NCBI GenBank assembly: GCA_031265355.1
Contig: JAISCT010000064.1
Coordinates: 1,254-65,253 of the forward strand
DNA from: Oscillospiraceae bacterium
Lineage (GTDB): Bacteria; Bacillota; Clostridia; Oscillospirales; UBA929
DNA: 64,000 nt
Reading direction: 5' to 3'
In this document: positions 2,916 through 61,134 of the stretch, in pieces
Numbering within the stretch: position 1 is the first letter of the stretch
How the letters are laid out: the number at the start of each line of letters is the position of its first letter
Made by a program: the position numbers and the translations under genes
Notes under the pieces: model-generated
The model's database searches: none
Told to the model about the DNA's origin: nothing
What the model saw: the letters and a program-made list of their open reading frames with translations, nothing else

Positions 2916-2944
2916 GTACAAAATTTTGTACGAACATATGTTTC
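2916..2944 (+). promoter_or_regulatory. 16-nt perfect palindrome GTACAAAATTTTGTAC abutting a Cheo/LexA (SOS) box CGAACATATGTTTC
   Basis: The palindrome spans 2916-2931. The box at 2931-2944 fits the Gram-positive consensus CGAACRNRYGTTYC. It lies just upstream of the extended -10 TGcTATACT (2961-2969). Confidence 0.65.
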
Positions 2945-3018
2945 TTTTTGGCCCCGCCTGTGCTATACTGTCCTCATAAGCCGTCCCCACCGCTCTTCGC
3001 GAAGGAGTGTGACCCACA

Positions 3019-5402: not shown

Positions 5403-6563
5403 TTATGTCAGCTTCGCGAGCAAGATCGGTATGAGCTGGAGGATCATGCCGCCCGCCACGACGGAGCCGAGCTGACCCGACACATTGGCGCTCACGGCGG
5501 GCATGAGGATGAAGTTGTGTGGATCTTCCTCCTTGGCCATCTTCTGGACGATCCGGCTCGACATCGGGAAGGCGGAGATGCCCGCCGCACCAATCATTGG
5601 GTTCACCTTGTGCTTGCTGAACACATTGATGAATTTCGCGAATAAAACACCGCCCGCCGTGTCAAAGACAAACGCGACGAGCCCCAGACCCAGGATGAGC
5701 AGCGTCTCCAGGCGCAAAAACTGGTCCGCACGCATCGTCGCGCCGATCGTGATGCCGAGCAGCAGCGTAACCAGATTGGCAAGCTCGTTTTGCGCCGTCT
5801 TTGAGAGGCGCTCCAACACGCCGCACTCGCGGATGAGGTTACCGAACATCAGCGACCCGACCAGCGCCGCAGAGGCCGGCACCAGGATGCCGGCGACAAC
5901 GGTGATGACGATCGGGAAGACGATCCGCGCCATCTTCGAGACCTTGCGCACCTGGTTGTCCATACGGATGAGACGTTCTTTGCGGGTGGTCAGCATCCGG
6001 ATGACCGGCGGCTGGATGATCGGCACCAGCGCCATGTAGGAGTAAGCGGCCACCGTGATGGCCCCCAGGTAGGAGGCGGCAAACTGCTGAGCGACGACAA
6101 TGGAGGTTGGCCCGTCCGCCGTGCCGATGACGCCGATGGAGGCCGCGATCTTCAGGTCGATGTCGAGCGAGGGAATCGCCTCGCCCAACGCCAGCGCCAC
6201 AAGAACCGTGAAAAAGATGCCAAACTGCGCCGCCGCGCCAAACAGCACCATCTTGGGTGAGGACAACAGGTGTGTGAAGTCGATCATCGCGCCGATGGCG
6301 ATGAAGATGAGGATCGGAAACAGTTCGGTGATGATGCCGGCATCGTAGAAGATCTGCAAAAAACCTTTCTCGCCGCCATGGGTCCAGACGGTGGCGAAGG
6401 GCAGGTTCACAAGGAGCGCGCCAAAACCGATCGGCAGCAGGAGCATCGGCTCATAGTCCTTCAAAATCGCGAGCAAGATGAGCACCAGCCCGACCGCATA
6501 CATGACCCCCTGCTGCCAACTCACCGCCAGCGCGCCGGAAAACAATTCTCTCAGCATGTCCAC
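5403..6563 (-). CDS. Sodium ion-translocating decarboxylase beta subunit (OadB/GcdB/MmdB family)
   Basis: 386-aa polytopic membrane protein. Blocks such as LLLPIGFGALLVNLP, FYDAGIITELFPILIFIAIGAMIDF and GPTSIVVAQQFA are characteristic of the family. Confidence 0.8.
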   Translation of the reverse strand: MDMLRELFSGALAVSWQQGVMYAVGLVLILLAILKDYEPMLLLPIGFGALLVNLPFATVWTHGGEKGFLQIFYDAGIITELFPILIFIAIGAMIDFTHLLSSPKMVLFGAAAQFGIFFTVLVALALGEAIPSLDIDLKIAASIGVIGTADGPTSIVVAQQFAASYLGAITVAAYSYMALVPIIQPPVIRMLTTRKERLIRMDNQVRKVSKMARIVFPIVITVVAGILVPASAALVGSLMFGNLIRECGVLERLSKTAQNELANLVTLLLGITIGATMRADQFLRLETLLILGLGLVAFVFDTAGGVLFAKFINVFSKHKVNPMIGAAGISAFPMSSRIVQKMAKEEDPHNFILMPAVSANVSGQLGSVVAGGMILQLIPILLAKLT

Positions 6564-18908: not shown

Positions 18909-19152
18909 GCCATGCACCTCGGTATCTCTTCGATATCTTTATCCTACCAATGATCAGGACAGATTGCAAGCAAAGTTTCTGAGGCGCGGCGTTTTGATGT
19001 CCAATAATTGTAAATTACACATGATATACCCTCATCTATCACCCATCAGTTGTCACTTTGTATGGCACACGATCATACAATGGTTCAGGTGTCAGAAGCG
19101 CGTCTGGCGCCGCTCCCGGCCGGGAAATCCATTTTGATGCGGAGGTGTCCAG

Positions 19153-19704
19153 ATGATTGATTTAAGCAAAACCTACCGATGCAAATACTGCAATGCGGAA
19201 ATCCGCCCATGCGATGAAACCGGCGGCCGCTCCTGCGCCAGCGCACCTACGGGCCCCAGAGGGCCGCAAGGACCGCCCGGCTGTCCCGGACCGAAGGGTG
19301 ACCCGGGCGATCCGGGGCCGCAGGGACCCGCTGGACCGCAAGGCATACGAGGCGATACCGGGCCCCAAGGGGATCCCGGCTCCCCCGGGCCGATGGGTCC
19401 GAGCGGATCCCGCGGGGCCGTCGGTCCGCGAGGCGACCCTGGCCTGCAGGGCCCCACGGGTGCGGGAGGTGCGTCAGGGCCGGTAGGACCGGTAGGGCCG
19501 GCTGGGCCGGCTGGAGCGGTGGGACTAATAGGACCGGTAGGGCCGGCGGGCCCGACTGGAGCAGTGGGACCGATAGGTCCGGCGGGAGCGGCTGGAGCGG
19601 TGGGACCGATAGGTCCCGCAGGGCCGGCAGGGCCTGCGGGACCAGCGGGGCCGGCAGGCCCTCCGGGACCAGCGGGACCGGCAGGACCGCCGGGACCGCC
19701 GTGA
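19153..19704 (+). CDS. Collagen-like triple-helix repeat protein (BclA-like), apparently truncated
   Basis: RBS GGAGGTG, a Cys-rich 33-aa N-terminus, then ~150 aa of uninterrupted G-X-Y repeats that end directly in TGA. Confidence 0.75.
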
Positions 19705-19864
19705 CCGGTGTCCCCGGGTCGGAATCGACTTCCGACAGACCTTCGACGTGACCCTGAAAATGAGAACGCAAACACGTACGTACATCGAGGCCCGCATCGT
19801 CAGCGGCGCGGTCACGCTCACCGCGGACGCCAGCGTCTTTCTGGGCCGTATCCGCGTCCACTGA
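19703..19864 (+). other. +1-frame open tail following the collagen-like ORF (possible displaced C-terminal domain)
   Basis: Frame +1 is open from ~19612. It reads ...[47 protein letters not shown] and stops at 19862-19864, 21 nt before the terminator stem. Confidence 0.45.
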
Positions 19865-19885
19865 AGACCTCCCTTTCACTTAAAA

Positions 19886-19916
19886 GGATGCCCCAAGCCA
19901 GGGCATCCTTTTTTCT
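19886..19916 (+). terminator. Intrinsic terminator
   Basis: GGATGCCC-CAAGCCA-GGGCATCC followed by TTTTTT. Confidence 0.85.
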
Positions 19917-19941
19917 CTTTTTCGGCATTTCCATGATTCTC

Positions 19942-19970
19942 TTGCCATGTGGCCCGACGGATGGTATAAT
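19942..19970 (+). promoter_or_regulatory. Sigma-70-type promoter for ecfA-ecfT-truA
   Basis: TTGCCA (19942-19947), 17-nt spacer, TATAAT (19965-19970). Confidence 0.55.
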
Positions 19971-20033
19971 ACTGTATTGATTTAAATGCCGGATCCATCC
20001 GGGGCACCGGGGTCTTGGGGGGAGGTTCTCGAT

Positions 20034-20900
20034 TTGACGCCCATCCTCAAAACGGAGCAGCTCTCCTATGTCTACGGCGCCGGTACTCCCTTCGAGCATC
20101 GGGCGGTCGACCGCATCGATCTCGAAGTGGCGCCGGGCGAGTTTCTGGGTATCATCGGGCACACCGGCTCTGGCAAATCCACGCTGATCCAGCATCTAAA
20201 CGGGCTGTTGCGACCCACCGAGGGGCGCGTATTCTTTGAGGACCGCGATCTCTGGCGTGACCCAAAGCAAATCCGTCAGACGCGGTTTCGCGTGGGGCTC
20301 GTGTTCCAATATCCCGAGTACCAGCTCTTTGAGGAGACAGTGGCGCGTGACATCGCCTTCGGACCGCGCAACATGGGTCTTGCCGAGGAGGATGTCGCCC
20401 GGCGGGTACAGGCAGCCATGCAACTCGTCGGGTTGGCGCCGGAGACCGCGGACAAGTCCCCGTTCGATCTCTCGGGCGGGCAGAAGCGGCGGGTCGCCAT
20501 TGCTGGCGTCATGGCCATGGAGCCCGACGTGCTCATCTTGGACGAACCTACCGCCGGTCTTGACCCGCGTGGCCGCGAGGACATCCTGGGTCATATCCGC
20601 ACCTACCACACCGAACACGGGTCCGCCGTCATTCTCGTCAGTCACAGCATGGAGGAGATCGCCCGCTCGGTACAGCGTATCGTCGTGCTGAGCCACGCCC
20701 GCGTGGTCATGGACGGCACGCCCCACGAGGTGTTTTCCCGGGCGGACGAACTCGAACAGACCGGACTTTCCGTTCCGGCAGTGACACAGGTCATGCGGCG
20801 GCTGCGCGCGCTGGGTCTAGACATTGACCCCGCCGCGTACACAGTCCGGCAGGCGGCCTCGGAGCTCGCACCCCTCATAAGGAGGGTGCGCCTATGCTGA
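20034..20900 (+). CDS. ecfA: Energy-coupling factor transporter ATPase (EcfA2-like)
   Basis: Walker A GHTGSGKST, signature LSGGQKRR and Walker B ILILDEPT. TTG 20034 lies 8 nt after GGGGGGAGG. Confidence 0.85.
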   Translation: MTPILKTEQLSYVYGAGTPFEHRAVDRIDLEVAPGEFLGIIGHTGSGKSTLIQHLNGLLRPTEGRVFFEDRDLWRDPKQIRQTRFRVGLVFQYPEYQLFEETVARDIAFGPRNMGLAEEDVARRVQAAMQLVGLAPETADKSPFDLSGGQKRRVAIAGVMAMEPDVLILDEPTAGLDPRGREDILGHIRTYHTEHGSAVILVSHSMEEIARSVQRIVVLSHARVVMDGTPHEVFSRADELEQTGLSVPAVTQVMRRLRALGLDIDPAAYTVRQAASELAPLIRRVRLC

Positions 20901-30512: not shown

Positions 30513-33500
30513 TCACCGCGTCAAAGTTTTGAGGAGGCGCATGAGCATCATCGCCGCTTCGGCACGCGTCGCGATCTCGTCCGGCGCCAGCGTCGTCCCG
30601 GTGCGGCCAACCATCAGCCCTTCCGCGTTGGCCCAGCGTACGGCGTCCAGCGCCCAGACGGACACCTTGTCCGCGTCCGTGTAGGCGGTGAGCACGTTCG
30701 CCTTCTCCGTGCCGCGTCCCTTCCAGCCGGCATACCGCAGTAAGATCGTCGCGATCTGCTCCCGGGTGATGCGGTGGTCTGGTCCGAAGCGGTTGTTTCC
30801 GTCCCTGTCGTTTCCGTATCCTTTTACAATGCCGTTTTCAGCGGCCCAAAGGATGGCGTTCGTGGCCGGCCCGTCGACTACATCGATGAAGCCGCTCGCC
30901 GCCGTCGCCGCGAGCTCGCCCTCGTAGCGGTGAAGTGCCGTTATAAACAGGGCTCTCGTCATGAGTCCGTCGGGGACAAAGACGCCGCCGTCGATATCGT
31001 CCATCAGATCATTTTCATATGTGTACTTGACCGCCTCATAATACCAGCTCCCGGCGGTCACGTCGGTGAATGGATCGGCCCACGGCCTTGGCACGAGCGA
31101 CGTTCCCAAACCGCCGGCCACTTCCGCCGCCCCGCCGCCGATCTTGGAGGGCTGTCTCCAGTATTCGGCCCCTTCCTCCAGTTCATAGTCGTCCGTATAG
31201 TGGAACACGATGCGGTCGTTGTTTTCCAGATATTGCTGCGCGACACCATATAAGGGGTGGCCGTCGTTTAACGTGTACATCCAGCCCGACTTCGCGCCGT
31301 TGGTGCCCTCACCCAGCGTCACCCCGTCTTTGGTGATGGATGTGATGTAATGGCCGCTTGGGTTTTCCCATGTCAGGCCCGCCTGGGTCAGGGCTTTTTC
31401 GAGAACATCCAGCACTGTGGCGTTGCGGGAGACGGTGAAGACGGTGTTCCGGGGGAGCCAAAGGGTGAGACCGCCATGCTGCAGCGTGTGGGTCGGCCCG
31501 CCGTCCTCGGGAGGCGTATGGACGGTGTCGCCGTAGAGGGTGAGGTACACGGTGATGGTGGTGGGCCTGGAGGTCTCCGGATAGAGCACCGTAATCTCGA
31601 AGGACGCTTCCGCCGTTTTGTACCGGAGGGTGACGGTTTTGACGCCCCTGACGGTGTTGTCAAAACCGGTGAACTCGACTTCCTCGGGGGAGAGAATCTT
31701 TTTGTCGTCGTTGCTGAACGTGGCGGTGATCACCATATCGGTGGTGCTGAAGCCCTCCCCCACCACATACCAGGTCTTGTAGCCGCCGCCGATCTCCAGC
31801 TTGAAGACAGTGGCGGTGTCCCGGTGAACAGGATACTGCGCGCCCTGCGCCCAGTTTTCCAGGCTGCCTTCACCACGGTTCAGCCAGTCGGTGACCGTGC
31901 CGTCGCGCAGCTGCTCCGCCGTCACCGCGCTGGCCAGGCTGTCGGTGTCGACGCCCAGGGGGTCGTCGGTGCGGTTCACGTCGCGCCGGCTCATGCCACT
32001 GATATCCGGCGCCCCGGCGCCGGTGTTGACATAAGTCACGCCCTCGACAAAGGCGGGCGTCGGGTGGCTGGTGTCGACGTACTGCACACCGCCGATGCCT
32101 CGGGCCACCCCGGCGGTGTCCGCGTAGTAATTGTTCGTGACGATGTTGTAACGGTTAAGGGACCGGATGTAGCCGATGATGCCGCCGGCGTAGATCTCGG
32201 TCTCCGCCGGATCGGCTGTAGCCGTGACGGTCCCGATGAAGACGCTGTTGCGGATGCTGCCGGGGCCGTTGTCCCAAGCCTGCACGAGGCCGCCCTCGTC
32301 GCCGAGGAGTCCGCCCACGCGGTTGCTCCCCGTGATGTCCGCCGCGACATAGCAGTTCTCCACGGTGACGGCGGGGGTGTTGGGGGCAAAGGGGGAGACA
32401 TAACCACTGCCCACAATGCCGCCCACACCGCTGCCGGTGGCGATGACCTGCCCGGCGAAGGCGCTGTTGCGGATGGCAAAGGGCCCCATGGACTGCCCCT
32501 TGAAACCAGCCAGACCGCCCACGCCGCTGCCGCCGTAAACCGTGGCATAGCTGACGCTGTCCACAATCGTGCCGTTGAAACCGCCGGCAAAGGAGCCGCC
32601 GCTCCCGGTGGCGGGCGTGTCATTCACCCTGTCGTACCCGACGACGACGCCCGCCTCCGCGGTACAGCGGACGATGTTCACGTGATTCTGCCCCGAGGCG
32701 CTGCCGCCGATGAAGCCGGCGAGCCTCGTGGTGGTGCCGCTCTTGAGCGTGACGTTGATGATGTCGACGGTGGGACCGCCGCCAGAACCGGTGGGACCGT
32801 AGTCGACGGGGTAGCTCTGTACCAAGCCGTAGCTGTTGATGTAGGGGCCGTAGATGCTCAGATTTTTGACGGTGGCGCGCCGGGCGTACAGCAAGAGGGG
32901 CGGGGAATCATAGGCGAAGCTGAGGGTGTGGCCGTCGCCGTCCAGCACGCCGGAGAAAGGCTTCATATTCCGTCCGCTGCCCGTGACGTCGCCGCCGCCG
33001 ATGGGCTTCCAGGTGTCGTCCAAGTCGATGTCATTCGTGAGCTTGAAGTGGACGCCGCTGAATGGGAGACCGGCCTCGGTCTGCCGCTGCAAAGCGGCCA
33101 GGTCCGCCTTTGTACTGAGCAGTTTGGGGTCCTCCGCCGTGCCGCGGCCGGGCCAGTCCTGCATCGCCTCCCCGTAGTCCTGCGGGGTCTCGATGTGGAC
33201 ATAGATCGTCTCGCTGGCCTGATATCGCAAGCCGCCCACGGTGACGCTGGCCGTGACGGTGTACAGGTTCGGCCCCAAGCGCGCCGATGTGGTCACGGGG
33301 GTGATGGAACCGTCGCCGTTGCCGGACGTGCTCGTCTTACTGCCGCCCCACTGCACCGTCCAACTGTAGGTGACGGCATAGCCCGCCGCTGCGGTGGCAG
33401 CGGACACCCGCAGGTCCGACACCCCCGTCTCGTCCACACGGTAGTGGTAGCCAATTTCCTGCGTCCAAGTGATGCCCACAATCTCCGGCAGCCGTTCGCC

Positions 33501-34739
33501 CGGCGTCAGCACCGTGAGTACGGGGGTGGGGTCCGGGAAGACCGTGACGCGCGCCGCCTCGGAGGCGGTGCTCCGGCCGCCTTCGGCCGTGCTCGTGACG
33601 ACGCAATAATAATAGATAACACCCACTGCTGTCACGGATGGGACAAACTCGGCCTCTGCGGCACCCGCCACCGGTATTCCGCTGGAAACGTCGTCCACAG
33701 TGTTTTGATACCACTGGTAACGGAGCCCCCCGGCAGCAGTGGCGTAGAGAGACAGGGCTTTGACGCCTTCTTGATGCAGCACATAGTCCGCTGACGCCGC
33801 GGGCTGGACGATGATGTCGGGCGTGAGTTGGGGGGCTGTATCGGGGGCGGTGACGGTGACGACACACCAGGGGGCGAAGATGTCCACATAGGCGTCGCCC
33901 CGGGCGGAGAGGATGTACGTGCCGGGCGCGGCAAAGCGCACCGTGAACGCGCCGTCCTCGTCGGCCGCGACCGCCGGCACAAAGGGCGCCGCCGCGCCGG
34001 TGGCGGGATTGAGGGTGACAATGGGCAAGTCCTCGCAGAGACCGGTGTCAACAATACCGTCGCCGTCGAGAGGCTGACCGTACATCATCGTGAGCAGCAT
34101 GTCTCCTTTGAGGGTCAGCGTGAGATCCTCGCCGGCGACCGTCGTGACCGCCTGCGTTTTGCCTGTCTGATTCTCAAACCAAGTATAATAGTCCGTGGAA
34201 TAGGCATCTTGGTAGATCAGAAATTCCACGTCGTCTCCGTCGGCCACCGGCGCGTCCGGGACGGTGAACGCCGTGTCGTCCTCTCCCGGCATCGCCCCGT
34301 CGACTAGGAGCGAGAGAATCGGTTTGCTCTCTCCAAAGGCCGCGGTGACATAGTCCTGTTCGTTCATCGTGACGGCGCCGCGCACCCAAGCGGCAAAGCC
34401 CTCCTCGTCATAGGCGCCGTTTGTGAGCACATATTGGATCTGATGCGCCCTGATCAGCGCATCCAGGCCGGAGACGGCCCCCTCGATGTCCTTGTAGCCG
34501 TAACGCTCAGACAAATCCGCCGTGACCGTCGCCGCCTGTTTGGGGACAATGTAACCGCCGTCCTGAGCGCTGAGAAAAATGTCCGCCGTCTCACGGCCGG
34601 GTTCATCGGCGGCCGGTGCGAAGACGACCTCATTGTCCCTCGCCCAGGCCACCGTCGGCAGGGTCAGCACCGAGAGACCGGTCAGGACCATCATCACAGC
34701 CAGCAGTATGGATGCGAGCCTGTTTTGCCACTTCTTCAA
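30513..34739 (-). CDS. SLH-anchored multidomain surface protein with DUF4430/transcobalamin-like, Ig-like and GLUG-type modules
   Basis: Has a signal peptide (ASILLAVMMVLTGLSVLTLPTVAWA) and the DUF4430-like sequence SGWMYTLNDGHPLYGVAQQYLENNDRIVFHYTDDY. It also has repeated GG[LI][VAIL]G motifs and three C-terminal SLH repeats (FTDV...WYYEAV; FIDV...; YTDADKVSVWA...). TTG start after GGAGGAGG. Confidence 0.85.
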   Translation of the reverse strand: MKKWQNRLASILLAVMMVLTGLSVLTLPTVAWARDNEVVFAPAADEPGRETADIFLSAQDGGYIVPKQAATVTADLSERYGYKDIEGAVSGLDALIRAHQIQYVLTNGAYDEEGFAAWVRGAVTMNEQDYVTAAFGESKPILSLLVDGAMPGEDDTAFTVPDAPVADGDDVEFLIYQDAYSTDYYTWFENQTGKTQAVTTVAGEDLTLTLKGDMLLTMMYGQPLDGDGIVDTGLCEDLPIVTLNPATGAAAPFVPAVAADEDGAFTVRFAAPGTYILSARGDAYVDIFAPWCVVTVTAPDTAPQLTPDIIVQPAASADYVLHQEGVKALSLYATAAGGLRYQWYQNTVDDVSSGIPVAGAAEAEFVPSVTAVGVIYYYCVVTSTAEGGRSTASEAARVTVFPDPTPVLTVLTPGERLPEIVGITWTQEIGYHYRVDETGVSDLRVSAATAAAGYAVTYSWTVQWGGSKTSTSGNGDGSITPVTTSARLGPNLYTVTASVTVGGLRYQASETIYVHIETPQDYGEAMQDWPGRGTAEDPKLLSTKADLAALQRQTEAGLPFSGVHFKLTNDIDLDDTWKPIGGGDVTGSGRNMKPFSGVLDGDGHTLSFAYDSPPLLLYARRATVKNLSIYGPYINSYGLVQSYPVDYGPTGSGGGPTVDIINVTLKSGTTTRLAGFIGGSASGQNHVNIVRCTAEAGVVVGYDRVNDTPATGSGGSFAGGFNGTIVDSVSYATVYGGSGVGGLAGFKGQSMGPFAIRNSAFAGQVIATGSGVGGIVGSGYVSPFAPNTPAVTVENCYVAADITGSNRVGGLLGDEGGLVQAWDNGPGSIRNSVFIGTVTATADPAETEIYAGGIIGYIRSLNRYNIVTNNYYADTAGVARGIGGVQYVDTSHPTPAFVEGVTYVNTGAGAPDISGMSRRDVNRTDDPLGVDTDSLASAVTAEQLRDGTVTDWLNRGEGSLENWAQGAQYPVHRDTATVFKLEIGGGYKTWYVVGEGFSTTDMVITATFSNDDKKILSPEEVEFTGFDNTVRGVKTVTLRYKTAEASFEITVLYPETSRPTTITVYLTLYGDTVHTPPEDGGPTHTLQHGGLTLWLPRNTVFTVSRNATVLDVLEKALTQAGLTWENPSGHYITSITKDGVTLGEGTNGAKSGWMYTLNDGHPLYGVAQQYLENNDRIVFHYTDDYELEEGAEYWRQPSKIGGGAAEVAGGLGTSLVPRPWADPFTDVTAGSWYYEAVKYTYENDLMDDIDGGVFVPDGLMTRALFITALHRYEGELAATAASGFIDVVDGPATNAILWAAENGIVKGYGNDRDGNNRFGPDHRITREQIATILLRYAGWKGRGTEKANVLTAYTDADKVSVWALDAVRWANAEGLMVGRTGTTLAPDEIATRAEAAMMLMRLLKTLTR

Positions 34740-34863: not shown

Positions 34864-34911
34864 ATACTCCACGCTTCTTTCGCACATAAAACGTACAAAA
34901 ACAAAGCCTAT

Positions 34912-35160
34912 CTTTTTGTAGGTCTTCTGACTCGTGCCTTTCCAAAGCCCGAAGGGGCTTTGACACCGCGCCGCCCAGCCTTCTCAGGACGCTTCCCAAT
35001 GACCGATTTTCATCGCGGGCTGCGCAATTCAGTACACTCACAGCATGGCCGGAGCAGGCGCCCGCCTGCACAAAGCGCGCACCGACCATATCCGGGATTT
35101 ACACCCGGTTCCCTTGTTCATCCCCACAACCCTGTGACGCGGCCGCGGGGCCACAAAAAG
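34912..35160 (-). promoter_or_regulatory. Cobalamin (B12) riboswitch aptamer
   Basis: On the minus strand, the P1 helix pairs CTTTTTGT with ACAAAAAG. The core contains AAGGGAACCGGGTGTAAATCCCGGA, GCCATGCTGTGAG, TGGGAAGCG and the B12 box GAGTCAGAAGACCTAC. Confidence 0.8.
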
Positions 35161-35174
35161 ATGATCTATAAGCC

Positions 35175-53516: not shown

Positions 53517-56500
53517 CTACACCTGCCCGGGAAATGGAATACTTTTTCCACCCGATTCCTCCGCGCGGGCCTTCGCATCCGCCTCTTCGCCGATCTTCCA
53601 CCTTTTCCCGCCGGCAAGAACCGCACCCGCGCGCCAGTCGGCGGGCCGGCGGGGTCGGATGGCAACAGGCGCTCCGTCCCGCCATTGTACGCCGAGGAGA
53701 TGTTCCACAGCCACGCGGTAATACCAAGCGGCGGCGCCCGTGTAGGCGCTCCAACCGCCCCGGCCGGCGTGCGCCTCGTTGTCATATACATCGGCGGCCA
53801 GCACATGCGGTTCCACGCGGTACACGGCCAGATCATGCGTCTCCGGCAGCAGGAGGCGCAGGAGTTCCCAGCCCCGCTCCGTCTGCCCGTCCAGCAGAAA
53901 CCCCATGGCCAGCCATACGGCGGCGTGGGTATACTGTCCGCCGTTTTCCCGCACGCCGGGTACATAGCCCTTGATATAGCCCGGGTCAGGCCCGTCGGAC
54001 CCAAAGGGCGGCGTCAGCAGGCGTACGATGCCCTTCTCTCGGTCGACCAGCCGCGACCAGGCGCTTTGCAGTGCCGTGCGCCGTCGGGCCGTCTCTGCGT
54101 CTGTGGAGCCGGGGACCAGCAGCGCAAAACTCTGGGCAACCGAGTCGATTTGACAGGCCCCGCCTCCGGCGGCGCCCAACGGGGCACCGTCGTCGTAGTA
54201 ACCGCGCCGATACCAGGCCCCGTCCCAGGCCGCTTCCGCCGCCTCCGCCAGCGACGCGGCCGCGTGTCTCTGGCGCGCGGCCGCGGCCGCGTCGCCCCGA
54301 CTCTCACACAGCGCCGAGAGCCTCGTCAACGTGTGGACGGCAAACCATGTCAGCCACACGCTCTCGCCCCGCCCGCCCGCGCCCACGCGGTTGAAACCGT
54401 CGTTCCAGTCGCCGCCGCCCATCAGCAGTAAGCCGTGTGCGCCCGTGCCCCGCGCGAGCACCTGGTCGGCCGCTCGCAGGCAGTGCGCGTACACGGGCTC
54501 CCTGTGGAGCGAGATCGCGGGCGTCTCATAGCGTTCATGCTCTCCTTTTGCCAGCGGCGGCGACGAGAGATAGGGTACCGGCTGGTCAAGCAGAGCGCCG
54601 TCTCCGGTCTTCTCCACATATTCGCACACCGCATAGGGCAGCCACAGGAGATCGTCGCTGCACCGGGTCCGTACGCCCTTCTCACCCAGGCCGGACCGCC
54701 GTACGGCCGGATGCCACCAGTGCTGCACGTCACCCTCCACAAACTGGTGGGCACAGGCGCGCAGGATCTGCCGCCTCGCCGCAGCCGGATCTCCGTAGAC
54801 AAGCGCACACACGTCCTGAAGCTGATCGCGAAAGCCGAAGGCGCCGCCGCACTGATACAGCGAGGTACGGGCGTGCAACCTCACGGCCTGCACCTGATAG
54901 AGCGCCCAACCGTTCAAATAGCGATTCAGCGCCGCGTCCGGCGTCTCCGTTCGGATAGGACACACCCGCGCGCGCCACCAAGCCACTGTCTCCGCGCGCG
55001 CCCGCGCGGCCTCGGCTTCGTCGGCGAGCGCCCGGAGCAACTGCAGCCCAGGTTCGTTGCACGCACAGCCGCACACCAATACGAGCGTCGGCGCGCCGGT
55101 GCGCCAGGGGATCTCGCAGGAAAACGCACCCGGTCGCTCTTTCACCGCCTCCAGCGGCGCGGACGCCAGGATGGCATAGGTCTGCGGGTTATACGCCGCG
55201 CGGTAGTACGACCGGGCCGTGACCATCCCGTCTGCCTGTTTTAGCAAAATCTGATTTTGCGCCGCGTCGTCCGGCCCCATTCTGAGTGCGCTCTCGTAAT
55301 GCAGTCCGGTGCCGGCTGTATCCTTCCCCTCCACACGTACCGTGAGCACCCGGGCCATCCGGTGCGGCGGCACGAAGGCCTCTGTGATCACCTGCGCTGT
55401 GCCGGCCGTCTTCTCCCATCGGGCATACCCGAAACCGTAGGTGACCGTCACCGGGCATCCGTCGCCGTCCGCAAACAGCGACACCAACCGCCCCCTCAGC
55501 CGAACGGCGATCCGTTCGCCGCCGCGCACGGCCAGCGGGTCGTTTATCCACGGTGTCAGTTGGTTCTCCCGAGCGTTGCGCCGCCAGAGGTAACCCGTTC
55601 CGGCGTCGGTCACCAGCGCGCCAAAGGCAGGGTTTGCCAGCACGTGGCTCCAGGCGCAGGGCGGCAGACCCCGCGCCGTGTCGAACTGGAAGGCACCATC
55701 CGGCAACCAGCGGCGCGATGGCGCGGCGATCTCCGGCGGCGCGCAGGACAGCGTCACGGCGATCTCCGGCGGCGCGCAGGGCAGCGTCACGGCGGCGGCT
55801 TCCCCGCAGATCCGGCGCGCCACGGCGCGCAACAGCCGCGTCTCCTCTGGCGTGCAGGCGCCCCTGTCGATCAGATGCACGCCACCCCGCGCCCCCAACG
55901 CGTTCTCCGCGCCGATATGCTTCAGCGTCTCCATCACCAAGTTGCGCGTCGGTCCGCGGTAGTCGGCGCCATCTCCCGTCAGTATGGCGAGATCGCAGGC
56001 CGTCCCGCACAAGGACAGCATCCGATGTTGGCGGATGAGTCGCCCCAGCCGCTCGGCAGGCGTCGCCTCCGGGTCCGTGCACAGGAGCAGCGGCAGGTCC
56101 CCCGAGAGGCCGAATTTCCACAGTTCGCTTTGATCCAGGCGGTTCTGCCGGGCGGCGCCGGGGTCCACACCCGGCCCAAACAGCAGTCCGCTCAGCATGT
56201 CGAAAGCCTCCAGTGCTTCGGCACCCGTCAGTCCGAGCCGCCGCAGCAAGCCTGGCAGGCCTCCGGGCTTTTCCGCCGGGGCGGATAGGCCTGCCAAACG
56301 GGCCGCCGCCGCCACCGCGTCCCGTTCCGTGTCCGCCACCGTGAGCGCGAAACGCACGACGGCCGTCTCTCCGGGCCCAAGCGACAGCGGCACGCGGGCC
56401 AGAACGCAGGGATCCAGCACAGTCCCTCGGCTATGCCCCGGCGGTCGGCGTACCGCACCGTCCAACGCCGCGGCCCCGCCGCGGCCCAACGCTCGCTCGC

Positions 56501-59500
56501 GCGAAGTGTCGTAGGTCACGCCCGGGTGGTCGCAGGTGAACGCCAACCAGGCCTCACCGCCGCCGCCGCGCGGCCGGCGGCGCACCGTGACTGTCTGCAC
56601 ATCGATATATGTCTCCAAAAACAATTTGGAAAACGCCGGGTGGGCGTCGTAGTCCGCCTGCACGGCCAGCACGGGTTCCCAGTAACACGCCAGCGTGAGC
56701 GTTTGGCTCGCCTTGGCGGTGTTTTTCACTGTGGCGGCGCGCCATTCCCCCACCTCGTCGCCGGGTACTCGCGCCTCCCATTGCACGTCCCACCCGTCTG
56801 TTCGAATCCACCACCGCGCGTGGGTCGCGTCGAAGACATATCCGCTCTCCGGCGCCTCGCCGGAGCCAGCAGGCAGGCCGAGGACGCGCCGGCCGTCATC
56901 CAGCCGGAGCACCAGGCCGGACGCGCCGAGGTCCCGGCCCTGCGGATCGAAGCGCGTAAGCTGCCGACCAGCCCCACGGGACGATGTCGCCCCTGTTCCC
57001 ATACAAAGCAGCGTGTAGGAACCGTTGGCAAGCAGATGGCAGACAGACGCTCCTCCGATGGCGCCGGTGCGGTGCCAGTCCTCTGGTGCGGCGCGGGTCG
57101 GCTTTTCGGGCACCTCCCGCCCAAACGGACGCACCGACACGGCGCCGACCGGCACCTTCTCTTGAAGAAGTTCGGCAAAGGCGCCCATCTCCGGATCGCG
57201 CATGAAGCGCCGCTGCATCACCTGGGTGCGCAACGCATTGTCCACGGCCAGCAGACTCATCCCCAAATGGTGCGACATAAAACAGCGCACGATTTCGAAG
57301 GCCCCCCGCCCCGTTCGGCGGGCCGGTGTGAAATCAATCGCCTCAAACAGTCCGTATCGCCCCTCCATCCCCAGCGCGCGCAAGGCACGCAGGTTCCGCA
57401 TCGCCGCCTGCGGCTGGGCGAGCAGCGCTAGGTAGGACGCATAGGGCGACACCACGTATTCCCCGCCCAGCCCTCGCTTGAACGCCAGTCTCGGCACGCC
57501 GTGAGCCTTGTAGCGATACTGCAGCGCGCTGTCGAAGGCGTAAAAGCAGCTCTCTGAAACACCCCAAGGCACACCCCAACCGCGGCCCTGCTTGCGGTGG
57601 CAGTAAACGCAAAAACGGGCGCTCTCAAACAGCAGCGAGTTTTCAAAACAGGGCATCAGCAGGTGCGGCATCAGGTATTCGAACATCGTACCCGTCCAAG
57701 AAGCCATACCGCGATAGCGGTCGTCCATGACCAGCGCCCGCCCCAGCCGCCGCCAGTGCCGCCGCTCTACCTCTCCCCGGGCAATGGCAAGATAACTTGT
57801 CTGCCGCGCCTCCGAGGCCAGCAGGTCGTAATGACTTTCGGAGAGCTGCCCCGTCTCCGCATCCAGCCCAATGGCAAACAGACGCCGCCGGGCATCGTAG
57901 AGCGGCTGAAAGTGCATGGCCCGGGCGAGTTTGTCTGCGCGCGCGGCCAGGTCCCCCGCCGCCGCGTCGCGTAGCTCACCTAACCCTTCCCGCAGCGCGA
58001 TCAGACAGCAGGCGAGGTTGCCTGAGTCCACGGTGGAGACATACCGGGGACGCAGGATCGCCAATGTGCGGGTATCGATCCAGTTGTAGAGATGCCCGTG
58101 CCACTTCGGCAGCTCCTCCAGCGTCGTCAACATCCGCTCGATCAGCCGCAACGCACGTTCAGCGCCCGCGAGGCCGAGGTCGAGGGCGGCCAGCACACAG
58201 AGCAGACCGAGCCCGATGTTCGTGGGCGAGGTGCGGTGCGCGAGCCCGGCGGCCGGCTGTTCCTGCCAGTTGTCCGGCGGCAGGTAATGGTCCTCCGGCG
58301 TGAGGAAGTCCTCAAAATACTGCCAGATGAGCGCCGCCTGCCGCATCAGAAACGCTCGGTCCGCCCCCGGCAGCCGGCGGGGACAGCGGCGGGGCCGTCC
58401 GGTGAGGGAGAGCACCACCGGCGAGAACACCCAGAGGAGGCCCACCACCCAACCGGCGGACGAAAGCAGTGTACACAGCGTTCCCCAGACGACGGCGAAG
58501 CCCATCTTCCGCCCATCGCGCAGAAAGCCGCTGACCGCCGACCGTTCCGACTCGGCGGCCGTCACCCAGCGCAGCAGGCGCCTCCGGCTGACGTGCACTC
58601 GATACAGCGCCGTCGCCGCCGCCTGCAGATAGACGAAGGCCGTATGGGGCAGCAGCAGGAGTTCGAGGCCACATTGCAGCGCAGCGGCGGCCACGCCTGT
58701 GATGATGTCGGAGTGATATCGGATCCGTCCGCCGCCGCGTACAGCCCGCTCAGCAGCCGAAAGCAACAGGCGCGAGGCCGCGCACAGCACGGCCAGCCCT
58801 CCGACGATCCACAAGGGACGGGCGGGCGCGGCAAACCCCAGCGTCAGCGCGAGGAGCAGACACGCGGGCGAGAGGCTACGGCGCAAATTGTCCAATATTT
58901 TCCATTTCGAGAGGATTCCCAACGGATTGCGGCTCCGTCCGCCGGCGCCGTCCCGCACGCGGCGACCGAGCCAGCCGGCGATCTGCCAATCCCCGCGCGT
59001 CCAGCGGTGCAGACGGTCAAACCAAGCTCCCACCCGCGTGGGGCAGCCGTCCGTCAGCTCCACATCCCCAAGCAGCCCCGCGCGCAGGTAGCAACCCTCC
59101 AACAGATCGTGGGAGAGGATCAGATTTTCGGGAAAACGCCCGTCCAGACAGGTAAGATAGGCATCCACGTCGAAGATCCCTTTACCAAGAAAGAGGCCGC
59201 GGCCGAAGAGATCCTGGTAGACGTCGGACGAGGCGCCGCCGTACGGGTCGATGCCCCCCTGCCCGGCGAAGACCCGCGTGAAGAGCGTCCGCCCCGCCGC
59301 CTCAAGATCCACGGCAAGCCGCGGCTGCAGGACCGCGTGGCCTGCGGTCACCACCCGACGCGCCGAGTCGATCTGCGGCGCCGTCAGCGGGTGCAGCATG
59401 GCTCCAACCATCTCGCGCGCCGCGCCGGCGGTCAGCCGGGTGTCGGCATCCAGCGTGATGACATAGCGGATCTTCCGTAGCGGCGCTACATCGCCCGTCG

Positions 59501-60944
59501 CCGTGCGCAGGCCCGTCGGGCGGCCGCGCAGCAGGCGCATCAGCTCCAGCAGCGCGCCGCGCTTCCGCTCCCAACCCATGTACATTCCGTCTCGGACGTG
59601 GAACTGGCGATCGCGCAGAAAGAGATAGAAGCCTCCGTCGTACCTCCGATTGAGCGCAAAGATCGCCTCCTGCGCCGTCCGGAGGACCGACCTGTCCCCA
59701 GGCCGCCGTTTCGCCGGCGCATCCGGCAGATCGGCCAACAGACCAAACAGAAGCCTCTCGCCCGCGTCTCGGTTTGCAAGTTTGTAATTTTCCAGCAGTT
59801 TGCACATCTGCCGAGCCCGTCCGCTGTCGGTCAGCAGCACCGAGATTACACACAGCGCGGATCCATGCGCCGGGAGCCCATGGGCCAGCTCCAGCCTGGG
59901 GATGCGGCGGGGCGAAACCAGGCGCGTCGCCGCGAAATCCACTACCGACTTCACAAGATCCGAGATCGGGAGCAGCAGCAACGCCGCGGCCCACAGCGTG
60001 CCGGACAGCGTGCCCGCCAGCGCCGTCAGCGCCGCTGTGAGAGCAAAGAAAGCTCCGAAATACAGCATCCCGGCCGGTCGGCGACGCCGGCGTCCCAGCG
60101 GCTGCTCCCAGATGTAGTAACCCACATGGCGGCGCCGGCCGGCCGGCGCGCGGCGCGCCAATTTTAGCACGGCCTCGGCGGCCTGCTGTTCGGAGAGGCG
60201 CGCGCGGCGCGCCAAACGGGCGAGCGCCCGGCGGTATTCGGCGCGTGACGATTCATCCATCGCTCCGTATACCTCCGCCGGATCTCGGCGGAGCAGCGCC
60301 TCGATGGTGCTGGCTTCCTGCAGACATTCGGTCAAATCGTCGTTGGCCAGCATCCGCAGTGAGGTAACCGCCTGACCGGTCCACGTACGCAGACGCGCGT
60401 CCGCAGTCGCCGCACGCGCCGGGTCGGCCGCGGACGCGCGCAGCATCTCGTCGCACAGCTCGGCCACGGACTCGACCAGCGCCGCCTTGAGCAGCGGAAC
60501 AAAGAGCCACAGCTCTTTTTCCGAGAGCGGCCACACCGTTTGCGCGCCCGCGAGGTAGCACCCGACCCGCGCCCGGGTGACAATGTTTTGTCCCGCACGC
60601 ACCAAACCGGCCGCGAGCGTGTACACCGCCGGCAGCCCGGTCCGCCGGTCTGCCGGGAACCGCCCGGCGCGCTGCAGTGCCAGCATGGCCTCCCGCGCGG
60701 CGCGCTCCACGAGATAGCGGTTGTCCAACAGCCACTCGACCGCCTGCGGTATGTGTGGCTGCCCGGTCGAAAGGGCTGACAGTTTCAGCGCCGCCGCCCG
60801 AATCGTCCGGAGCTGCCGCCCGAGCCGCCCGGCCAGCCGCGCGCCGCGCGCCGCGCCTTTGCGCTGCAGCGTGCGCGCCGTGTTTTTGGCGTATTGCCCG
60901 AGCCTCGCCTCCTCCACCTGGATCCCCACATCTCCGGCCGACAT
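53517..60944 (-). CDS. Cyclic beta-1,2-glucan synthase-like giant protein (GT84 + linker + GH94 phosphorylase-like; Cgs/ChvB/NdvB family)
   Basis: Multi-TM N-terminal half with IRYVITLDADTRL, SDVYQDLFGRGLFLGKGIFDVDAY and ILSHDLLEGCYLRAG. The C-terminal half has RDQLQDV...FVEGDVQHWWHP. ATG 60944 follows RBS GGAGGTGGG; the track start is 61010. Confidence 0.8.
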   Translation of the reverse strand: MSAGDVGIQVEEARLGQYAKNTARTLQRKGAARGARLAGRLGRQLRTIRAAALKLSALSTGQPHIPQAVEWLLDNRYLVERAAREAMLALQRAGRFPADRRTGLPAVYTLAAGLVRAGQNIVTRARVGCYLAGAQTVWPLSEKELWLFVPLLKAALVESVAELCDEMLRASAADPARAATADARLRTWTGQAVTSLRMLANDDLTECLQEASTIEALLRRDPAEVYGAMDESSRAEYRRALARLARRARLSEQQAAEAVLKLARRAPAGRRRHVGYYIWEQPLGRRRRRPAGMLYFGAFFALTAALTALAGTLSGTLWAAALLLLPISDLVKSVVDFAATRLVSPRRIPRLELAHGLPAHGSALCVISVLLTDSGRARQMCKLLENYKLANRDAGERLLFGLLADLPDAPAKRRPGDRSVLRTAQEAIFALNRRYDGGFYLFLRDRQFHVRDGMYMGWERKRGALLELMRLLRGRPTGLRTATGDVAPLRKIRYVITLDADTRLTAGAAREMVGAMLHPLTAPQIDSARRVVTAGHAVLQPRLAVDLEAAGRTLFTRVFAGQGGIDPYGGASSDVYQDLFGRGLFLGKGIFDVDAYLTCLDGRFPENLILSHDLLEGCYLRAGLLGDVELTDGCPTRVGAWFDRLHRWTRGDWQIAGWLGRRVRDGAGGRSRNPLGILSKWKILDNLRRSLSPACLLLALTLGFAAPARPLWIVGGLAVLCAASRLLLSAAERAVRGGGRIRYHSDIITGVAAAALQCGLELLLLPHTAFVYLQAAATALYRVHVSRRRLLRWVTAAESERSAVSGFLRDGRKMGFAVVWGTLCTLLSSAGWVVGLLWVFSPVVLSLTGRPRRCPRRLPGADRAFLMRQAALIWQYFEDFLTPEDHYLPPDNWQEQPAAGLAHRTSPTNIGLGLLCVLAALDLGLAGAERALRLIERMLTTLEELPKWHGHLYNWIDTRTLAILRPRYVSTVDSGNLACCLIALREGLGELRDAAAGDLAARADKLARAMHFQPLYDARRRLFAIGLDAETGQLSESHYDLLASEARQTSYLAIARGEVERRHWRRLGRALVMDDRYRGMASWTGTMFEYLMPHLLMPCFENSLLFESARFCVYCHRKQGRGWGVPWGVSESCFYAFDSALQYRYKAHGVPRLAFKRGLGGEYVVSPYASYLALLAQPQAAMRNLRALRALGMEGRYGLFEAIDFTPARRTGRGAFEIVRCFMSHHLGMSLLAVDNALRTQVMQRRFMRDPEMGAFAELLQEKVPVGAVSVRPFGREVPEKPTRAAPEDWHRTGAIGGASVCHLLANGSYTLLCMGTGATSSRGAGRQLTRFDPQGRDLGASGLVLRLDDGRRVLGLPAGSGEAPESGYVFDATHARWWIRTDGWDVQWEARVPGDEVGEWRAATVKNTAKASQTLTLACYWEPVLAVQADYDAHPAFSKLFLETYIDVQTVTVRRRPRGGGGEAWLAFTCDHPGVTYDTSRERALGRGGAAALDGAVRRPPGHSRGTVLDPCVLARVPLSLGPGETAVVRFALTVADTERDAVAAAARLAGLSAPAEKPGGLPGLLRRLGLTGAEALEAFDMLSGLLFGPGVDPGAARQNRLDQSELWKFGLSGDLPLLLCTDPEATPAERLGRLIRQHRMLSLCGTACDLAILTGDGADYRGPTRNLVMETLKHIGAENALGARGGVHLIDRGACTPEETRLLRAVARRICGEAAAVTLPCAPPEIAVTLSCAPPEIAAPSRRWLPDGAFQFDTARGLPPCAWSHVLANPAFGALVTDAGTGYLWRRNARENQLTPWINDPLAVRGGERIAVRLRGRLVSLFADGDGCPVTVTYGFGYARWEKTAGTAQVITEAFVPPHRMARVLTVRVEGKDTAGTGLHYESALRMGPDDAAQNQILLKQADGMVTARSYYRAAYNPQTYAILASAPLEAVKERPGAFSCEIPWRTGAPTLVLVCGCACNEPGLQLLRALADEAEAARARAETVAWWRARVCPIRTETPDAALNRYLNGWALYQVQAVRLHARTSLYQCGGAFGFRDQLQDVCALVYGDPAAARRQILRACAHQFVEGDVQHWWHPAVRRSGLGEKGVRTRCSDDLLWLPYAVCEYVEKTGDGALLDQPVPYLSSPPLAKGEHERYETPAISLHREPVYAHCLRAADQVLARGTGAHGLLLMGGGDWNDGFNRVGAGGRGESVWLTWFAVHTLTRLSALCESRGDAAAAARQRHAAASLAEAAEAAWDGAWYRRGYYDDGAPLGAAGGGACQIDSVAQSFALLVPGSTDAETARRRTALQSAWSRLVDREKGIVRLLTPPFGSDGPDPGYIKGYVPGVRENGGQYTHAAVWLAMGFLLDGQTERGWELLRLLLPETHDLAVYRVEPHVLAADVYDNEAHAGRGGWSAYTGAAAWYYRVAVEHLLGVQWRDGAPVAIRPRRPADWRAGAVLAGGKRWKIGEEADAKARAEESGGKSIPFPGQV
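55726..55791 (-). repeat. 33-bp x2 in-frame tandem duplication inside the glucan-synthase-like gene
   Basis: Units 55726-55758 and 55759-55791 differ at one base. They encode VTLPCAPPEIA and VTLSCAPPEIA. Confidence 0.85.
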
Positions 60945-61134
60945 AAACGACACCCACCTCCGACGTTTTTCGTGCGCCGGCGCCGCGCGCCGGTCGCTTT
61001 GCCCTAGCATGGCCCACCGACGGGGCGGCTATACCGGCGCGCTTCGCCTTGTCTTATCTTGTCTTGACAAGACAAAATTGGAGCGCGCATAATGGAGATA
61101 CAGGCAGAGGAATGTCAAAGAGAGGGGGAGCCTC

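Follow-up and report, generated by a model that had tools for sequence, protein, structure and literature searches.

A collagen-like gene that ends at its Gly-X-Y repeats, and the coding-like out-of-frame tail behind it, in a termite-gut Oscillospiraceae genome

The collagen-like gene described here, from a termite-gut Oscillospiraceae MAG, is a member of the broad bacterial collagen-like class with an unusual minimal architecture, a cysteine-containing head joined to Gly-X-Y repeats at which the protein ends. This ending at the repeats is common to both complete members of a small family, namely, the gene in our window (the whole 64-kb stretch of DNA that was analyzed) and the one complete orthologue, at a locus designated L001 (n = 1); at a second related locus, L002, the 3' end of the gene falls within an assembly gap. 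Behind the stop codon lies a tail in the +1 frame with gene-like codon usage. The reading that we favor, which we hold to have about an even chance of being right, is that the gene specifies a tail-less collagen-like rod and that the tail is what remains, stranded, of a C-terminal extension the gene once had. We take the anomaly to be, most probably, a leftover of evolution and not a mechanism.

Results

The ORF is supported as a genuine collagen-like gene, and the locus is a single-gene unit consisting of a promoter, a ribosome-binding site, the ORF, and a terminator. Its features, with those of the tail, are as follows.

19052..19081, plus strand: sigma-K-like promoter element, with -35 GTCAC (19052-19056), a 17-nt spacer, and -10 CATACAAT (19074-19081)
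19116..19125, plus strand: palindrome CCCGGCCGGG in the 5' untranslated region, invariant in 3 of 3 orthologues
19141..19147, plus strand: Shine-Dalgarno sequence GGAGGTG, 5 nt upstream of the ATG (direct reading)
19153..19704, plus strand: collagen-like ORF, 183 aa (direct reading and translation)
19153..19251, plus strand: N-terminal head, 33 aa, with four Cys (10, 13, 20, 28) and a C-x-x-C at 10-13
19252..19701, plus strand: Gly-X-Y region of 50 triplets (residues 34-183), Pfam Collagen PF01391
19702..19704, plus strand: stop codon TGA adjoining the last triplet, the protein ending GPPGPP (direct reading; the same in the Logan assembly)
19703..19864, plus strand: orphan +1-frame tail, 53 codons plus stop, with gene-like codon usage (translation)
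19882..19922, plus strand: intrinsic terminator with a 12-bp stem (19882-19912), a 7-nt loop, and a T-run

The Cys-rich 33-aa head, the uninterrupted Gly-X-Y repeats, and the GPPGPP-TGA ending are present as the initial annotation of this DNA described them. A triplet check of residues 34-183 found Gly at the first position of all 50 triplets with zero interruptions; position X is mostly Pro and position Y mostly Ala, Pro, or Val, with Thr at 3 of the 50 Y positions. The ORF scores 84 bits with PF01391, whose cut-off is 27.2, at an E value of 5.9e-24, and no Pfam domain besides Collagen was found in the ORF, the tail, or an artificial ORF-tail fusion. Tandem repeat periods within the gene are 9, 18, 27, 36, and 45 nt. 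A hydrophobic signal peptide was looked for in the head (residues 1-33) and is absent, and no LPXTG anchor was seen in the ORF sequence. The head, which is conserved and certainly coding, has a codon adaptation of -0.15 bits per codon, compared with about +0.3 for the tail and a gene mean of 0.40. Two antisense ORFs (19173..19775 and 19247..19879) were considered as genes and rejected: Gly-X-Y is interrupted in both, and their codon scores are lower. The plus-strand gene is favored over them because its start, ribosome-binding site, and head are conserved in the orthologues.

The stop codon lies 177 nt from the terminator stem, in agreement with the ~180 nt reported initially, a distance for which the strong terminators of the window are too few to serve as a baseline. 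The strong terminator itself is also present, with its stem at 19882-19912 instead of the 19886-19916 given before, and the L001 orthologue has a homologous one. An exact-protein look-up of the 183-aa ORF returned no record, the full 183 aa as a query matched generic collagen proteins with no orthologue among them, and the head gave zero matches among 5.8 billion proteins.

The orthologues came from 80 loci of species-representative genomes, anchored on the divergently transcribed smc gene. A homologue in the corresponding place, between smc and ecfA, is present in 2 of the 80, L001 and L002, both from termite-gut Oscillospiraceae MAGs, with SMC 93% identical. Genes for EcfA and EcfT lie just downstream of the collagen-like gene in the window, and the order smc, collagen-like gene, ecfA is the same in L001 only. 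In tblastn comparisons the head is 48% identical in L001 and 58% identical in L002, with no match elsewhere in the 80 loci, and a core of RC[KR]YCN is common to all three heads. Set against identities of 90 to 93% for SMC and EcfA, head identities of only 48 to 58% indicate that the collagen-like gene is genus-restricted and fast-evolving. A metagenome scan anchored on EcfA yielded no close relative, the best match being 62% identical.

The L001 gene (L001:3762..3048, minus strand) encodes 237 aa with a cysteine-rich head and Gly-X-Y repeats. The repeats end GPPGP with a TAA adjoining, and the terminator follows about 55 nt further on, with no tail between. Likeness to the tail was found in L001 at neither the DNA nor the protein level, and the L001 3' untranslated region aligned to the tail region no better than shuffles did (p = 0.14). 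In L002 the contig breaks off within the repeats, and ecfA of this MAG lies on another contig (L140) that begins only 70 nt ahead of it, so that the 3' end of the gene falls between two contigs (JAIRML010000015.1 and JAIRML010000122.1). The initial annotation had invoked the BclA architecture as grounds for expecting a C-terminal domain, but this family departs from it: L001 stops after the repeats, and neither protein matches the BclA_C profile. Orthologues that terminate directly after Gly-X-Y had been named there as refuting evidence, and the only complete one (n = 1) does terminate so, without a tail.

The neighboring intergenic regions differ among the three loci. In L002 alone, a ~70-nt element containing two hairpins (GCCGCGAAGCGGCAAC ... 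GGGCTGCAGGGGCAGCCCAC) has been inserted twice in tandem between the smc start and the collagen-gene promoter (positions 840-1000, read on the minus strand); it resembles a small intergenic element of the repetitive kind. In L001, an additional inverted repeat, G+C-rich and ~45 nt long (CACGCGCGCCGC...GCGGCGCGTG; 2925-2970, minus strand), stands between the terminator of the collagen gene and the promoter of ecfA. The window lacks this repeat, which shows that indels turn over the intergenic region.

Upstream of the gene, a sigma-K-type promoter at 19055-19082 had been put forward as a speculation, and the comparison supported it, the element being invariant in all three orthologues with a fixed 17-nt spacing. 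A three-way alignment of the upstream regions shows the GTCAC and TCATACAATGG blocks to be invariant in the window, L001, and L002, with a spacer that is 17 nt long in 3 of 3 and variable in its letters; the promoter blocks are thus unchanged across three species despite heads that are only 48 to 58% identical. AC-N17-CATACAAT (19055-19081) has its sole match in the 64 kb at this site, where 0.01 would be expected by chance. The Shine-Dalgarno block GCGGAGGTGT is conserved in L001 and L002, and the invariant palindrome CCCGGCCGGG could be an operator or an RNA hairpin. Sigma-E and sigma-K promoters have a CATA-type -10 in common and differ at the -35 (ATA versus AC), and bclA1-3 of Clostridioides difficile are sigma-K dependent (PMC3789822). 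The element matches this consensus and is probably a promoter of the sporulation type (late mother-cell, sigma-K), which would place expression late in sporulation. No sporulation genes, only housekeeping genes, are found in the 64-kb window, so the link to sporulation comes from the promoter motif and the missing signal peptide.

Downstream of the repeats, the +1 frame is open to the TGA at 19862-19864, as the initial annotation noted; the exact opening is at 19613, directly after a TAG at 19610-19612, and not at ~19612. Openness as such is unremarkable, since an open stretch of 52 codons also turns up in ~65% of the shuffled versions of the region. The codons are another matter. By a log-odds score trained on 20 long genes of the window, the tail reaches +16 to +18.6 bits (+18.6 over the 47 codons from GIDF on), while the other five frames of the region lie between -44 and +7 bits. 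The tail score falls at the 25th to 41st percentile of true coding windows, +18.6 bits being at the 41st. Among wrong-frame windows taken from real genes, 0.36% attain +18.6 bits, or 2.7% when only open windows are counted; among shuffles of the same region, 0.01% attain the tail score. G+C at the three codon positions is 0.57/0.47/0.81 in the tail and 0.72/0.47/0.81 in smc. This gene-like codon usage makes the tail a real anomaly, and we conclude from it that the tail is likely to be sequence translated, now or recently, in the +1 frame.

Relatives of the tail were sought widely. The only match of the 49-aa tail among 5.8 billion proteins was an identical 34-aa JGI gene call, P0001, which most likely is a gene call from the same contig as the window and for which an exact-protein look-up gave no record. 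A full HMMER search of 1.84 billion representatives returned only P0001 and one DUF11/DUF7507 protein; the latter was rejected as a homologue, its 36 bits being summed over four repeats and judged spurious. The tail matched no family in Pfam or NCBIfam and nothing meaningful among viral contigs, phages, and plasmids, its DNA and protein matched only themselves in the window and 137 fetched loci, and Rfam recognized no family over the locus. Single-sequence AlphaFold2 modeling of the tail alone was uninformative (pLDDT 47). An intact allele with a fused tail was found nowhere in these searches.

The tail may never have been part of the gene, being either chance codon-like 3' untranslated sequence or an inserted fragment of other origin. 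This is suggested by the unrelated 56-nt stretch that L001 has in the same place and by the fact that the window gene and the L001 gene both stop right at the repeat end, and it would fit a tail that has no start codon before GTG 19748, no Shine-Dalgarno sequence, and no homologue. The 2.7% of open wrong-frame windows that reach its score must also be read in light of the many regions that had been scanned. We nevertheless regard this explanation as unlikely, if by no means negligible, because only 0.01% of composition-matched shuffles score as high and because G+C at the three codon positions resembles that of real genes of the genome. For an inserted fragment, moreover, a donor gene would be expected in the 15-billion-protein collection, which includes the MAG's own proteins, and none was found there.

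If the tail is coding, it could be an independent small gene of 34 to 38 aa, cotranscribed with the collagen-like gene and starting at ATG 19760 or GTG 19748, the latter being the earliest possible start in the frame. The JGI gene caller did predict the 34-aa ORF (P0001), the part from 19760 to 19861 scores +11.2 bits, and the two genes would have the terminator in common. Neither start, however, is preceded by a Shine-Dalgarno sequence, whereas those of neighboring genes are strong, and the ORF has no database homologue and is missing from L001. A coding signal of +7.35 bits also extends over 13 codons (19721-19759) upstream of any start codon. A formerly fused frame fits this signal better than a separate small gene does, and we consider the latter quite unlikely.

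Should the tail be fused to the repeats in reality, the TGA would stem from a one-base sequencing or assembly error in the repeat end, which is 79% G+C, and the true protein would have about 235 aa. A sequencing indel was among the explanations offered initially. It would account for the coding look of the tail, and contigs of the related MAGs as well as the Logan contig do break inside the repeats. The independent Logan assembly of SRR14710922 is nonetheless identical through the junction. It starts at window position 19587 and extends past the terminator, taking in the end of the repeats, the TGA, and the tail, so that two different assemblers agree base for base from 19587 to 20040, although the reads behind the two assemblies may be the same. 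A collapse of repeats would cost some multiple of 9 nt and leave the frame intact, no homopolymer exceeds GGGG, and, as L001 shows, a product without a tail is the norm in this family. We judge an error of this kind to be very unlikely.

The repeats also bear on the earlier proposal of a phase-variable switch in which slippage would turn the tail on and off. In its favor are the many repeats of the gene and the variation in length known for collagen-like surface proteins (PMC13188886). The repeat periods, however, are all divisible by 9 nt, and slippage would therefore leave the frame as it is. In 19612-19704, the only interval in which a shift could join the frames, no homopolymer is longer than the 4-nt GGGG, and the two assemblies are identical; we hold such a switch to be extremely unlikely.

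Recoding, the remaining mechanism named in the initial annotation, would take the form of programmed +1 frameshifting at CCG-UGA-C to give a minor tailed isoform. At the stop codon the tail frame is offset by exactly +1, hairpins lie on both sides of the stop, a C following UGA makes a weak termination context, and gene-like codons have been kept in a tail that has no start of its own. The site shares with prfB-type +1 frameshifts a downstream frame that is +1 exactly at an in-frame UGA. It differs from them in that no codon there re-pairs, a Shine-Dalgarno stimulator is missing upstream, and the orthologue does not conserve the arrangement. Known shifty stops use CUU-U or CCC-U; at CCG-CCG-UGA-C the tRNA-Pro on CCG is unable to re-pair on CGU, where it would keep one of three base pairs, no GGAGG or other Shine-Dalgarno-like stimulator lies upstream, Rfam has no element at the site, and the arrangement is missing from the sole complete orthologue. 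Only a faint chance can be given to programmed frameshifting. A slightly less faint one goes to a variant in which the tail, newly evolved and without relatives, works as a C-terminal module: some of the ribosomes would reach it by an unconventional +1 shift at CCG-UGA-C, and the cell would make a tail-less rod as well as a tailed form by which the trimer is nucleated or capped. Read-through, selenocysteine insertion, and an alternative code at the TGA were rejected, because beyond the TGA frame 0 has a score of -18 bits and continues through the terminator.

Discussion

Of the explanations offered initially for the tail, a frameshift mutation is the one that stays viable and that we prefer, as a past event in a lineage-specific extension, without regarding it as proven. 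Under this reading, the product would be a small collagen-like structural protein made of the cysteine-containing head and 50 Gly-X-Y triplets and ending at the TGA. It would form a triple-helical rod held by its head, possibly through disulfide cross-links, and would most likely be deposited onto the spore surface from the mother cell, a location suggested by the sigma-K-type promoter and the lack of a signal peptide or wall anchor. The 160-nt +1 tail would lie outside the present product. It would have begun as a lineage-specific C-terminal extension and been severed where repeat and tail meet, through a frame change of one base; removal of T19702 would join the two frames. What the data show is the gene anatomy, a tail-less orthologue, an orphan tail with its codon usage, and two assemblies in agreement; we infer sporulation-specific expression, the spore-surface location, and the origin of the tail, with codon statistics as the sole grounds for a former fusion. 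Two points sit uneasily with a stranded remnant. Well-adapted codons in an orphan extension are themselves odd, and if the stops of the window gene and L001 are homologous, the stop is older than the species split and decay of the tail would be expected, yet there is none.

The window gene would then be a naturally truncated allele like those documented for bclA in C. difficile, where pseudogenization of bclA alleles by nonsense and frameshift mutations is common among clades (PMC13188886). The truncated bclA1 alleles of clades 2 and 3 resemble our gene in that the stop leaves coding-like sequence downstream, and the truncated form is apparently tolerated (PMC13188886). In C. difficile, however, the truncation is proven by intact reference alleles and the stop comes early, at residue 49 (PMC13188886), whereas the window stop lies exactly at the repeat end, no intact allele is known, and the sister species has no tail.

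A wider likeness exists to the BclA-type exosporium proteins (Bacillus anthracis BclA and C. difficile BclA1-3), which also have a short N-terminal segment followed by long Gly-X-Y repeats. The window gene further resembles them in lacking a signal peptide, in its apparent sigma-K-type promoter, and in rapid evolution with variable repeat number. Unlike them, the window and L001 proteins have neither BclA_C (PF18573) nor any other in-frame C-terminal domain, and the window triplets are rich in Pro, Ala, and Val and not GPT. BclA_C is a C1q/TNF-like trimerizing domain, and its profile was without a match in the ORF, the tail, the ORF-tail fusion, and the L001 protein; at 128 positions it compares with only 53 codons in the tail. 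BclA-type proteins of Bacillus are targeted to the exosporium by an N-terminal motif resembling LIGPTLPPIPP, which direct reading shows to be absent from the head, and the GPT-rich triplets that carry glycosylation in BclA are not seen either (Thr at 3 of 50 Y positions). Judged by its sequence, the protein would thus stand outside the BclA family on three counts: BclA_C, the targeting motif, and the GPT triplets.

The streptococcal Scl1 and Scl2 and Legionella Lcl adhesins likewise have a Gly-X-Y region, and the NCBIfam matches of the ORF to such families cover the repeats only. Scores are 65 to 91 bits against cut-offs of 325 to 500 (NF038329, 90.9 versus 325; NF038330, 65.1 versus 400). With scores this far under the cut-offs and only the repeats matched, the protein is not an Scl or Lcl adhesin; unlike these, it has no signal peptide, no variable trimerizing head domain, and no LPXTG.

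If our interpretation is correct, a lineage-restricted, minimal collagen-like family of cysteine head plus repeats would be new for termite-gut Oscillospiraceae, and it would raise the question of how a triple helix nucleates without a globular trimerizing domain. It would also make the notion that collagen-like proteins need a C-terminal domain an unsafe rule for calling frameshifts, and the conserved sigma-K-type promoter would provide a way into the study of sporulation-specific expression in a gut lineage that is uncultured. Unless it is translated, the stranded tail would be a small evolutionary curiosity.

Several other features of the window deserve mention. A cobalamin riboswitch (RF00174, 51.8 bits) lies at 34900-35171 on the minus strand, with a terminator-like hairpin at 34863-34836 on the same strand. 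Directly downstream of the two is an ORF of 1408 aa (30513-34739, minus strand) with three SLH domains, Big_3, and DUF4430. Its product has the look of a giant surface protein that is regulated by B12 and anchored to the S-layer, perhaps to capture B12. The gene for the oxaloacetate decarboxylase beta subunit (5403..6563, minus strand) is closely preceded by a perfect sigma-70 promoter (TTGACA-17-TATAAT, 7033-7005, minus strand) and a 14-bp terminator hairpin (6629-6596); the ~400-nt leader, which has no Rfam match, is possibly an uncharacterized attenuator or riboswitch. Finally, a 2497-aa ORF (53517-61010, minus strand) with glucoamylase-like, GH94 supersandwich, and GH94 catalytic domains would, by its resemblance, be cyclic beta-1,2-glucan synthase-like.
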